From the IMG/VR virus record IMGVR_UViG_3300029305_003884, positions 1 through 64,000 of that record: DNA of 64,000 bases; one strand, given 5' to 3'. This DNA comes from a virus. Lineage: Duplodnaviria; Caudoviricetes. This document shows, piece by piece, positions 27,346-56,914 of this stretch (positions are counted from its first letter, which is position 1; every line of letters begins with the position of its first letter). The position numbers and the translations under genes are program-made. Below the pieces are notes generated by a model, which did not search any database, was not told where the DNA came from, and saw nothing but the letters and a program-made list of their open reading frames with translations.

Positions 27346-27414
27346 TAGTTTATAACGTAGAGGCGATAAAAACGCCATATCGGTAGCTCATTTGTTGTCC
27401 AATCTTATAAACTA
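27346..27414. promoter_or_regulatory. Back-to-back late promoters
   Basis: TAGTTTATA at 27346-27354 and TATAAACTA at 27406-27414. Confidence 0.8.
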
Positions 27415-54132: not shown

Positions 54133-54160
54133 AGTCTAGCCGATGAAATTCAATCAAAAA

Positions 54161-54169
54161 TAGTTTATA
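54161..54169 (-). promoter_or_regulatory. Putative late promoter TATAAACTA
   Basis: About 29 nt before the ATG at 54132; abuts the IS left end. Confidence 0.8.
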
Positions 54170-55626
54170 ATGTTGCGGCGAGAAAACTCGCACATCTTTA
54201 GTGGGTGAGACGAAAAAAACGACTTGACAAAAATTAAAACATTTTGTAACTTATATAAACATATAGGTAGAACAATGGATTACTGGCATTCTCTATTGTC
54301 CTATCGGTTCAAGATTTTGTGGCCTGTTGGGAAATTGAATGCCAGTTTAGTTCCCAACGGGCCATTCTTGTATATGATAAGCAGGGCATACAAAATACGG
54401 TTGTATCCAACGGTAAAGCAGCAGAAGTTCTTTGCAAGAACTTTTGGTACATGCCGTTTCATCTACAACCGTGTGATTGCACTTAAATCCGCCTTGTACG
54501 AAGAAACCCGCATGTCGTTCACGCCAAAGCTTGCGTCATTCAAGGAAGAATGGCCTTGGATGCGGGAAGCCGACAGCCAAGGCATGGCTAACGTCTACAT
54601 GGATGCATTAAATGCATATCAGAAGTTCTTCGATGGTAAGTCTAAGTACCCGAAGTACAAGAAGAAATGCGATAAGCAATCATACCGAAATGCGATGATG
54701 CCTAAGACAATATCTAAGCTCATCCGTGGCACTAGAAATGACCGAATATTCATTCCGAAGGCGGGATTGGTGAAATTCCGTCAGGACTACGACTTCAAGT
54801 CGTTGCCAATCAAGAAGATATGCAGTTTAACCATATCCAAGTCGGCAACGGGGAAGTATTTCTGTTCGATAACCTGCGAAGTGGACGATACTTCGATGAA
54901 ACTGCCGCCGAATAAAAATGAAATCGGGTTTGACTTGGGAATCAAGGATTTCCTCATCGACTCCGATGGTTGCGTAATCGACAACCCGAAATATATGAAA
55001 CGGAGCGAAGTCAAGCTTGACAAGGCACAGCGCAGGCTGTCCCTGTGCAAGAAAGGTTCGAACAACTATCTGAAACAGAAGCATCGTGTCGCTCTGGTAC
55101 ACGAAAAAATAAGAAACCAGAGAATGGATTTCCTGCACAAGGTCAGCAAGATGCTAGTTGTAGAAAACCAATACATCTACTCCGAAGACCTGAAGCCGTC
55201 CAACATGTTGAAGAACCACCGCCTTGCAAAGGCTATCGCAGATGCGTCCTTCGGACGGTTCTGCAATATGGTTGCATACAAGGCCATGTGGTACGGTAGA
55301 TACTACTTCAAGGTAGGGTCATTCTACCCGTCAAGTAAGCTGTGCAATGTCTGTGGTTACAAGAACACCACACTGACGCTCGAAGACAGGGAATGGACCT
55401 GTCCTCACTGTGGTACATACCTTGACCGTGACCATAATGCCGCTATCAACATACTGAATGAAGGAAATCGTATACGTTTAAGTGGAGATACCGTACGGAC
55501 TGCGGAAGCCGATAAATCGACTATGCTCGTTGATACTGGTAAGATTACTTACCTTGAGCGAGAATCCTGTAACGCCACGGATGGACTCGGGGAAACCCAC
55601 CCATCTTTAGTGGGTGGGTAGTTCAT
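54169..55626 (+). mobile_element. IS200/IS605-family (IS1341-type, tnpB-only) element
   Basis: Related subterminal hairpins sharing CATCTTTAGTGGGTG at about 54188-54209 and 55595-55619; left flank TTTAT, right end TTCAT; no tnpA. Confidence 0.88.
54374..55621 (+). CDS. tnpB: TnpB RNA-guided endonuclease
   Basis: RAYKIRLYPT HTH, RuvC D (GFDLG), E (SEDL), D (DRDHNAAIN), CxxC zinc finger. Confidence 0.95.
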   Translation: MISRAYKIRLYPTVKQQKFFARTFGTCRFIYNRVIALKSALYEETRMSFTPKLASFKEEWPWMREADSQGMANVYMDALNAYQKFFDGKSKYPKYKKKCDKQSYRNAMMPKTISKLIRGTRNDRIFIPKAGLVKFRQDYDFKSLPIKKICSLTISKSATGKYFCSITCEVDDTSMKLPPNKNEIGFDLGIKDFLIDSDGCVIDNPKYMKRSEVKLDKAQRRLSLCKKGSNNYLKQKHRVALVHEKIRNQRMDFLHKVSKMLVVENQYIYSEDLKPSNMLKNHRLAKAIADASFGRFCNMVAYKAMWYGRYYFKVGSFYPSSKLCNVCGYKNTTLTLEDREWTCPHCGTYLDRDHNAAINILNEGNRIRLSGDTVRTAEADKSTMLVDTGKITYLERESCNATDGLGETHPSLVGG

Positions 55627-55646
55627 AATCATGCCAAAAAAGCATA
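55470..55646 (+). ncRNA. Predicted omegaRNA (reRNA) overlapping tnpB 3' end, with guide AATCATGCCAAAAAAGCATA
   Basis: Established TnpB architecture; right-end hairpin plus flank. The 5' boundary is approximate. Confidence 0.6.
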
Positions 55647-55654
55647 TTCGATAG

Positions 55655-56914
55655 TTAATGTTCCAACTCATTCAAGTCAACGACTTTCTTGGCATACTTT
55701 TCGGGAGGGTCCTTGTCGGGATTAGTCTTCACCCACAGTATCTTCCTAACCCTGTATCTTTTAGCCAGTTTGAGCTCGGGATAGAAATCCATGTCGCTAA
55801 CGATGATTATGCCGTTGTACCTAGTTTTGCAGGTGTCCAGCATACGGAAAACACAGTTGCAGTCCGTGCCGCCGCCCGTCGCAATGGAGAATTGCTTCTT
55901 CTTTCTCATCATCGGAGTCAGATGGACTGGTTTCGTACACTGGGTATTCCACCAGCAATAGTCGATATCCACGTCCTTTCCGACGGCCAAAATCAGGGAA
56001 ATTATTCTGGAAACGGCACTTGTCGGCATAGAACGGCTAACATCGCCAGCAACCAGTAGCCTAGACCTGTACTCTGCGACATGGCCTGGGTACGCAAGGT
56101 CGAACCTGCGGTTCCTCTTGAAACGGCATTCCCTCCACCCGCACTCGATTGATTGGGTGACGAACTTCCTGATTATGGTACGTCCATCGACAGCCTTTTC
56201 AGCCTTCGACAGCATGCTCATGACACCGTTTGCCGTCGCCGTGCCCCAGCTTCCACCGCCATTAACAGCGGCCTGTTCAACCGCCTCGGTAACGCTACCG
56301 TCAGCATTCCACTCATCGGCCCTAGTCTCGTCGTTCAAGTATGTTGACATGCCGCCAGACGGGTTCTTTTCGCTGGAATCATCCTGCTGTTCCCCATCGT
56401 TGTTCTTACCACCGTTCTTGCCCTCGGTGAGCAGCTTATAGAGGATTTCGATACTTGCGTTACGGTAGTCGTACTCCTTGTAGAACTTGCTGTAATACAG
56501 AGAGTTGATGTTGGTTTCCAGGCGGGAAACCTTCGCCAGAACCTTACCGTAGGCGGCATTATTTACACCGATGTCGGAAGAAAGGCCCATCCTGAGGGCA
56601 ATAAGGTCGGATGCCATGAGGGACATCTTCTTGTCGCTGTAAAGACGGGTAGATACATGGCCTAATCCGATTCGGACAGCCTCGATGTAGAAAATCAGTG
56701 CAAGTTCTTGCGGTTCAAGAGTGGCCACGAAGTCACTGTTCATCTTGACATAGAGCTTTCCATTCTCGATGCCGCTGGCCACGCTGGTTACATCGTCAAA
56801 TACAAACTCAGCAAACCCGAGAACGGTATGCGTAATCGGGGCGTACTTAAACAAGAGATACTTGGCGAGCCTTGTAACGTCTTCGGGTTTTCTGTTTGTG
56901 TTTGTGTCGCTCAT
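55655..56914 (-). CDS. VWA-like / DUF2201-type protein (MoxR partner)
   Basis: MIDAS-like DVSRSM, GGGTD, IIVSD; N-terminal metallopeptidase-like domain. Confidence 0.8.
   Translation of the reverse strand: MSDTNTNRKPEDVTRLAKYLLFKYAPITHTVLGFAEFVFDDVTSVASGIENGKLYVKMNSDFVATLEPQELALIFYIEAVRIGLGHVSTRLYSDKKMSLMASDLIALRMGLSSDIGVNNAAYGKVLAKVSRLETNINSLYYSKFYKEYDYRNASIEILYKLLTEGKNGGKNNDGEQQDDSSEKNPSGGMSTYLNDETRADEWNADGSVTEAVEQAAVNGGGSWGTATANGVMSMLSKAEKAVDGRTIIRKFVTQSIECGWRECRFKRNRRFDLAYPGHVAEYRSRLLVAGDVSRSMPTSAVSRIISLILAVGKDVDIDYCWWNTQCTKPVHLTPMMRKKKQFSIATGGGTDCNCVFRMLDTCKTRYNGIIIVSDMDFYPELKLAKRYRVRKILWVKTNPDKDPPEKYAKKVVDLNELEH

Follow-up and report, generated by a model that had tools for sequence, protein, structure and literature searches.

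A conserved kissing-loop RNA leader upstream of tnpB in a T4-like phage and its possible role in restraining a mobile nuclease gene

Cas12 descends from TnpB, which is also the RNA-guided nuclease that prokaryotes encode most abundantly. Published work on TnpB concentrates on the omegaRNA at the 3' end, and much less on how the mobile element keeps its nuclease in check. In this study, we analyzed a stretch of 64,000 nucleotides (the window), which is the first 64 kb of a 178-kb virus record in IMG/VR (IMGVR_UViG_3300029305_003884). The phage is T4-like, as judged from a gp15-type tail sheath stabiliser and from UvsX, UvsY and gp15 beside the loci of relatives. It carries a single copy of tnpB in the whole record, and this gene belongs to a tnpB-only element of the IS200/IS605 type. 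About 110 bases from the promoter to the tnpB start codon form a leader with two hairpins whose loops are complementary (Table 1). The original prediction, made from the sequence alone, described this leader as a structured cis-regulatory RNA or small RNA (sRNA) controlling TnpB, and this still appears to be its best reading, as far as function can be judged from sequence.

The two hairpins (H1 and H2) and an exact 10-nt complement between their loops were found as predicted. The inner stem of H1 pairs ACAATGGA (54272-54279) with TCTATTGT (54292-54299) and includes one G-U pair. Its outer stem can be drawn as ATAGG/CCTAT with a bulge or as GGTAG/CTATC (54266-54270 / 54301-54305), and the latter is preferred in the minimum free energy (MFE) structure. 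The H2 stem consists of 14 bp, one of them U-G, between TGGCCTGTTGGGAA (54320-54333) and TTCCCAACGGGCCA (54351-54364), and it is extended by pairing of CAAGA (54310-54314) with TCTTG (54366-54370). The loop segment ACTGGCATTC of H1 is the exact reverse complement of GAATGCCAGT in H2, with a duplex energy of -15 kcal/mol. Each segment occurs once in the window, and a scan of the whole 178-kb record found no other hairpin pair with a 10-nt loop complement. The MFE of positions 54255-54385 was -47.4 kcal/mol, compared with -28.8 +/- 3.7 kcal/mol for 200 shuffled sequences (z = -5.1, none as good). The MFE structure resembles a three-way junction, which is closed by a weak 6-bp pairing of CAUAUA (54260-54265) with UAUAUG, including the AUG.

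Table 1. Coordinates of the leader, tnpB and the mobile element in the window
Feature	Position	Strand	Description
Mobile element, tnpB-only IS200/IS605-type	~54169..55626	+	Lies 3' of TTAT; ends ambiguous within shared ATAAT
Left-end imperfect hairpin, TnpA-type	54187..54209	+	CTCGCAC-ATCTTTA-GTGGGTGAG; outside the leader
Sigma-70-like promoter candidate	54224..54252	+	TTGACA-N17-TAACTT, read from sequence; TTGACA at 54224-54229; predicted start ~54259-54260
Phage late-type box (candidate promoter)	54254..54260	+	TATAAAC; predicted start ~54267; conserved in most relatives
Hairpin 1 (H1)	54263..54305	+	12-nt loop at 54280-54291
Kissing partner 1	54282..54291	+	ACTGGCATTC, in the H1 loop
Linker	54310..54319	+	Counterpart of the (A)GAGUUUAA linker conserved in relatives
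Hairpin 2 (H2)	54320..54364	+	17-nt loop at 54334-54350; -29.7 kcal/mol
Kissing partner 2	54337..54346	+	GAATGCCAGT, in the H2 loop
U-rich tail	54365..54373	+	Directly after H2, runs to the AUG
tnpB coding sequence	54374..55621	+	415 aa, complete; Pfam HTH_OrfB_IS605, OrfB_IS605, Cas12f1-like_TNB
Right-end hairpin	55596..55618	+	CCCACCC-ATCTTTAGT-GGGTGGG; overlaps the tnpB end, inside the conserved 3' omegaRNA-type region

Searches of viral, genome and metagenome collections with exact peptide patterns yielded only one close relative, L004; the remaining relatives from these searches were at most 44% identical and lacked such a leader. The intermediate relatives came from a protein database and a profile-based viral scan. 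We collected 20 related leaders, all distinct from one another, and counted 12 loop codes among them, each of which is perfectly Watson-Crick complementary over 7-10 bp. In most relatives, a third hairpin, which is variable, stands between H1 and H2, and the loops are exactly 7 nt long. When 233 distinct TnpB leaders were scanned for two hairpins sharing 7 or more complementary loop bases, 21 qualified, all of them before TnpB proteins at least 45% identical to that of the window; the same scan gave 1 hit among 233 shuffled leaders and 3 among 233 sequences internal to open reading frames (ORFs). The complementarity of the loops is beyond chance.

Loop-loop covariation, on which the original prediction hinged, is present in the related leaders. 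The TnpB of L004 is 81% identical to that of the window and lies in a different genomic context, and its leader is much diverged yet keeps all of the elements. Between the two copies, pairs compensated on both sides number three in H1, five in H2 and two in the kissing helix, and the broken pairs are one in H1 and one at the end of the kissing helix. In an alignment of 11 leaders (A10), all seven kissing pairs changed on both sides and all five H1 pairs covaried, with 100% of the cells paired in both helices. The covariation score was 0.72; none of 500 shuffles reached it (0.27 +/- 0.03), and sliding the partners gave no more than 0.13. The loops of this alignment were found by complementarity before trimming, yet they coincide with those that the stems define independently. 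Within the L265 subgroup, whose members are close, the kissing helix is the only one with more than one covarying pair (3/7), and the stems of H1 and H2 show no change on both sides. The loops thus have the hallmark of a kissing-loop pseudoknot, that is, complementarity kept by compensatory change, in 12 codes and with 100% pairing. A different pseudoknot was seen in L258 (760-903; TnpB 52% identical), where GTGGAAGGTTG in a large hairpin is complementary to CAACCTTCCAC directly before the ATG.

The covariance models of Rfam 15, including those for riboswitches, ribozymes, group I introns and IS605-orfB motifs, gave no match at E <= 1 in the window between 53000 and 57000, so that the Rfam search proposed with the original prediction left the leader without a family. 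The leaders of 10 relatives' loci likewise gave no relevant match at E <= 1, the only hits being two tRNAs in L265. The window leader was only a weak match to model R1 (10.2 bits; E = 0.004 with 221 nt searched), and model R2, of the three-hairpin type, detected no further leader copy in the record of the window phage. In the literature, we found no description of a TnpB with a kissing loop, leader or pseudoknot. On these comparisons, the leader is a real, conserved and uncatalogued RNA fold.

The original prediction also read the G-U pairs in the stems as a sign of structure at the RNA level, and the relatives are consistent with this. The non-Watson-Crick positions of the stems comprise 34 G-U against 3 A-C, a count in which the scoring slightly favours G-U at stem ends. 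Therefore, the sense strand is the folding strand, which is consistent with RNA, and we infer that the leader folds as RNA rather than as top-strand DNA. Strand bias alone would also be compatible with hairpins that act as single-stranded DNA in peel-and-paste transposition, as extra TnpA structures or replication-fork structures, because the top DNA strand is mRNA-sense and G-T wobbles are tolerated in IS200/IS605 end hairpins. However, the structure tracks the tnpB start codon and not the element end. A tnpA gene lies upstream of the leader in L252-254, L347 and L348 and separates it from the upstream flank, whereas the leader still abuts tnpB; in these loci, where the left end was not located, tnpA presumably lies between the left end and the leader. 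In L351, the leader precedes a non-IS gene without a nearby end hairpin, and the promoter, the U-rich tail and the placement of AGGA are features of RNA. A role as single-stranded DNA is therefore extremely unlikely.

As the original prediction held, the leader is separate from the left-end hairpin of the TnpA type and from the right-end/omegaRNA region. We rejected the leader as a subterminal TnpA-binding end hairpin of the IS200/IS605 type, since H1 and H2 begin 94-150 nt into the element, have nothing in common with the end hairpins and are also found downstream of tnpA in L252-254. It was also rejected as the omegaRNA of TnpB: it lies 5' of the ORF, and the conserved 3' block at ~55575-55627 is, by its conservation, the omegaRNA-type region. 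This block is nearly identical in L004 (one mismatch), while the coding sequence just upstream is more diverged. A group I intron (IStron) was rejected because there was no Rfam match and the leader is too short.

Two stacked promoter signals precede H1. The claim that a TTGACA promoter would initiate where the folded structure begins is plausible in that the layout TTGAC-N17-TAnnnT recurs in L246, in the L265-L272 group and in L351, but the layout is missing in L004 and L247 and the window candidate was not called by a simple consensus promoter scan. The late-type box TATAAAC had been missed by the original prediction. The window has 18 such boxes where 5.5 would be expected, nearly all of them in the form TATAAACTA(t). 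Most of them lie no more than ~50 nt upstream of an ATG, often as divergent pairs in intergenic regions (for example at 27348, 27406, 36489, 36520, 47022, 47054, 58358 and 58396). A perfect TATAAACTAT is present at the equivalent place in L004, L247, L249 and L250. The TATAAAC-type box is therefore a candidate late promoter of this T4-like phage and behaves like one. With either promoter, the RNA would begin where H1 has its foot. A further TATAAACTA box, located beyond the window (G000:C1:167350-167530), is followed by a strongly folded leader of ~130 nt, a free AGGAG and an ATG; this leader contains the 7-nt complement TTTGCCA/TGGCAAA, and ~0.7 such matches are expected by chance in the record.

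Across the leaders, the folding energy of H2 ranges from -11 to -30 kcal/mol, the distance from the end of H2 to the AUG is 5-11 nt in 18 of 20 leaders, and 4-7 U are found within the 8 nt after H2 in all 20. In 12 of the 20, AGGA at -11 to -18 lies inside the 3' arm of H2, paired with UCCU. The class to which the window belongs has no Shine-Dalgarno-like motif, and its H2 ends at -9. The original statement that the element covers the ribosome-binding region thus does not hold to the letter in the window copy, which has no recognisable ribosome-binding motif; what H2 occupies is the stretch upstream of -9.

It is conceivable that the leader acts positively, either as a 5'-terminal fold shielding the precursor of tnpB mRNA and omegaRNA from 5'-end-dependent RNases, or as an H1-kiss-H2 rod that serves as an RNase III processing site. 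In known TnpB systems, the omegaRNA derives from the tnpB transcript. In all types of the leader, H1 begins a few nucleotides from both predicted transcript starts, and the stacked helices could form a quasi-continuous duplex of ~27-37 bp. On the other hand, one 5' hairpin would be enough for protection, which leaves the conserved kiss unexplained, and neither the constant 5-11-nt spacing between H2 and the AUG nor the buried AGGA is accounted for. We consider a positive role rather improbable.

We favour the view, with a probability of about 0.55, that the leader is a cis-acting throttle in which a terminator-like, start-site-occluding H2, locked by the kiss, lowers tnpB expression. Transcription from the sigma-70-like promoter and/or the late-type box stacked upon it would begin at the foot of H1, and the leader RNA would fold into H1 and H2, whose apical loops would pair as an intramolecular kissing loop (pseudoknot). 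H2 with its U-rich tail resembles an intrinsic terminator and might stop part of the transcripts before tnpB. H2 may also occupy the ribosome landing site or block initiation at the adjacent AUG, and in most relatives it would bury AGGA. The kiss with the 5'-terminal H1 would lock H2 shut, and the outcome would be low and tightly limited production of a selfish nuclease. The weak pairing of CAUAUA with UAUAUG around the AUG is the only feature that could discriminate early or read-through transcripts from late ones. Both the negative sign of the regulation and a role of the kiss beyond that of H2 alone are points that we infer.

In L265, H2 combines a stem of 12 bp with a 7-nt loop and a TTTT tail, and a scan called it terminator-like. 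Several observations weigh against the proposed throttle. The tail of the window copy is only moderately U-rich and is interrupted (TTCTTGTAT), its 17-nt H2 loop is atypical for a terminator, and the scan made no call there. A strong, free Shine-Dalgarno motif stands 26-27 nt after H2 in L351 and L315. Therefore, start-site occlusion cannot be the universal mechanism, and the common denominator is a kissing leader that ends in a terminator-like hairpin. Judged from geometry, a linker of 15 nt leaves little length for an H1-kiss-H2 rod that is fully stacked, so the 10 kissing pairs of the window may form only partly in cis. Finally, L248, whose intact TnpB is 82% identical, has lost H1 and H2 and keeps only CAAGG-GCAT-CCTTG, in which CAAGG/CCTTG covaries with CAAGA/TCTTG of the window; the leader is therefore dispensable for a functional gene.

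The loop sequences themselves vary as a code (loop 1 / loop 2). The window carries ACTGGCATTC / GAATGCCAGT, and the other codes are TTGGCGTTC / GAACGCCAA, TTGCCGTTC / GAACGGCAA, CTGGCAC / GTGCCAG, CTGGTAC / GTACCAG, CTGGTCC / GGACCAG, CTCGCAC / GTGCGAG, GGATCGG / CCGATCC, GTAGCAG / CTGCTAC, GCGGAACCTT / AAGGTTCCGC, GGTCTGG / CCAGACC and GAGCGAG / CTCGCTC. The locus L315, whose TnpB is 43% identical, has GGACGAG / CTCGTCC and is a possible distant case beyond these 12. Each loop 7-mer occurs once per locus, with the exception of GCGGAAC, which recurs in L252, and hence no recurrent third partner was seen. A search for duplexes between the leader and the 3' end, with the omegaRNA as a candidate third partner, gave nothing above shuffled sequences.

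The leader design is also found before genes other than the window type of tnpB. In L351 (565-730; G001, 208.3 kb), a complete kissing-loop leader with the code CTGGTAC/GTACCAG stands behind TTGACA-N17-TATATT. After it come a free AAGGAG and an ORF of 160 aa with no assigned function, and neither TnpB nor a transposon end hairpin is nearby. In L363 (1490-1600; G005, 16.7 kb), a leader with the code GAGCGAG/CTCGCTC precedes a 431-aa protein, which has no Pfam-A match, matches phrog_12300 'transposase' (E = 6e-7), lies near clusters of the SSO2105_N type in the Atlas and is unrelated to the window TnpB by hhalign profile comparison. Leaders with different codes reside together in G001 (CTGGTCC, CTGGTAC and GGTCTGG) and in G005 (CTCGCAC and GAGCGAG). 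In the pair L267 and L268, 3/7 loop pairs differ while the four-fold sites of the ORFs differ by 12%. The ORF of L268 is closest to that of L267, whereas its whole leader and loop code are like those of L265, from which the ORF differs by 30% at four-fold sites. This discordance indicates that leader and gene have recombined in L265, L267 and L268 (leaders at ~799-900). Diversifying selection on the loops is suggested by the same comparison; we do not claim it, since it is confounded by the recombination.

These findings bear on the possibility that the leader is a discrete sRNA of ~105 nt, with its own promoter and with H2 and the U-rich tail as terminator, which acts in trans or dimerises loop to loop. 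The 7-10-nt code would then be a copy-specific address that avoids cross-talk between selfish genes or senses a matching copy. A promoter combined with a terminator-like end, loops that are the most variable part between near-identical leaders, the co-resident leaders with different codes and the leaders in L351 and L363 all fit such an sRNA, and the 5' untranslated region (UTR) of IS200 is processed into a trans-acting sRNA (PMC5435999). However, the discordance between loop and ORF is at least partly recombination, two of the codes in G001 are one base apart and therefore poorly orthogonal, and no target besides the partner loop was found in any locus. A trans-acting sRNA is thus possible but unlikely. 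An extension of this idea is that selfish nuclease genes of several kinds in T4-like phages share the loop code as a system of addresses, in effect a copy-number or homing sensor at the RNA level. Each leader would yield a small terminated RNA that finds leaders of matching code in trans, whether in its own genome or in a co-infecting one, and each mobile nuclease would be switched on or off by the presence of a copy with the same code. We regard this extension as a long shot.

Another possibility is that a protein, either TnpB itself or a translational repressor of the phage, binds the folded leader as its operator, which would give autogenous control like that of the T4 gp32 leader pseudoknot or the I-TevI operator. 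The single-stranded linker motif (A)GAGUUUAA between the hairpins is conserved without a pairing partner, and autoregulation is common among the homing endonucleases of T4 (PMC2988022). Binding specific to TnpB is argued against by the leaders before proteins unrelated to the window TnpB (L351 and L363); furthermore, the leader has no similarity to the omegaRNA region and, as noted, forms no duplex with the 3' end above shuffled sequences. Such an operator seems very doubtful.

The extent of the mobile element was defined with an empty site. The contig L350 of a sister phage (3380-3540, minus strand) joins both flanks of the window (54160-54172 and 55623-55635) directly; therefore, ~54169-55626 is a mobile insertion 3' of TTAT, as expected for IS200/IS605. 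The identity between the window element and L004 ends at ~55627. The insertion site falls within a late-type promoter box in reverse-complement orientation, TAGTTTATAAT; the box serves a divergent gene of 1109 aa and is restored by the first bases of the element. The left-end and right-end hairpins have CATCTTTAGTGGGTG in common, and homologues of the left-end type are present in L004, L246, L265 and L357. A solitary perfect right-end hairpin, CCCACCCATCTTTAGTGGGTGGG, was seen in L164 (5670-5710; G001) between two genes of another phage, without an adjoining tnpB.

The right end of the element abuts an HNH-like gene (55655-56914, minus strand) with a match to phrog_1314 (HNH endonuclease, E = 1e-20). 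Neither a special fold nor a comparable leader was seen in the 176 nt that precede the ATG of this gene (z = -0.35). The window and L004 both have a neighbour of 419 aa, and we rejected the notion that these are one inverted gene, as the proteins are unrelated despite their identical size. In L004 (1226-1384) and L247 (725-883), the elements 81% identical to that of the window, the left-end hairpin and the leader are separated by an extra 52-aa ORF, which has promoter-like and Shine-Dalgarno-like signals of its own; the window copy lacks this ORF. The TnpB of L004 has an internal stop near 1911, and that of L247 is intact. In L248 (900-1003 and 2240-2265), tnpB has a uvsY-like gene on one side and a uvsX-like gene on the other, with ATGAGAATTC at both of its flanks; this locus has two late-type boxes and a degenerate right-end hairpin.

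The leader provides a conserved putative regulatory module, supported by covariation, that can be tested by mutation. It is apparently shaped for life in T4-like phages because it stands directly behind a phage late-type promoter box, and the design is portable, as it also precedes other genes. The relatives further offer a natural set of at least 12 orthogonal kissing pairs of 7-10 nt that share one scaffold, which makes the set interesting for RNA engineering. If the leader does lower expression, its removal could matter for the mining of phage TnpBs as compact genome editors.

Kissing complexes are known from antisense control. In ColE1 RNA I/RNA II and R1 CopA/CopT, complementary hairpin loops serve as a variable specificity code, and in the attenuation systems of pT181 and pIP501 it depends on the kiss whether the rep start codon is preceded by a terminator. 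The present leaders are alike in their fully complementary 7-nt loops and in the use of the loop sequence as a variable code. The antisense systems differ in being intermolecular, with RNAs from opposite strands, whereas both loops of the window leader lie on one strand. Loop-loop contacts are also part of the purine and guanidine-II riboswitches, which likewise place two loop-touching hairpins ahead of a start codon, and the MFE structure of the window leader is three-way-junction-like. The loop-loop helix of the window leader, in contrast, is a plain Watson-Crick helix of 7-10 bp with freely varying sequence and no conserved ligand pocket, and no riboswitch family was matched in Rfam. The omegaRNA is a structured RNA of the same element that also contains a pseudoknot, but it belongs to the 3'/right end; the leader is 5', has no guide position and is absent from the intact relative L248.

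Comparable leader structures are found among selfish genes. In IS200, the expression of tnpA is suppressed by mRNA secondary structure (PMC4513863); its 5' UTR contains a terminator hairpin of the left end and a stem-loop that hides the Shine-Dalgarno sequence, and a processed 5'tnpA RNA is known (PMC4513863, PMC5435999). IS200 belongs to the same superfamily, and in both cases a structured leader lies inside the element, between the left end and the start of the transposase or nuclease, with the selfish gene poorly expressed in IS200 and, by our reading, here. As in IS200, the leader may also exist as a small RNA. However, IS200 regulates tnpA and not tnpB, uses a single hairpin together with an antisense RNA (art200) and Hfq, has no described loop-loop kiss and shares no sequence similarity with the window leader, at which no antisense promoter was seen in the promoter scan. 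In T-even phages, the homing endonuclease genes I-TevI, I-TevII, I-TevIII, segB and mobE carry hairpins that sequester the ribosome-binding site, together with late or middle promoters, while the hairpin of seg43(25) is non-sequestering (PMC2988022). These genes share with the window tnpB a T4-like phage, a selfish nuclease and a late-type box beside a very stable hairpin immediately before the start codon, and the variants in L351 and L315 resemble seg43(25) in having the hairpin just upstream of a free ribosome-binding site. The T4 genes differ in that the late promoter is placed so that late transcripts lack the inhibitory arm, and they have neither a second hairpin nor a kiss. The late-type box of the window lies upstream of both hairpins, and therefore every transcript would carry the full fold, unlike in T4. 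The proposed throttle would thus follow the logic of IS200 tnpA and of the T-even homing endonuclease genes in a different architecture.

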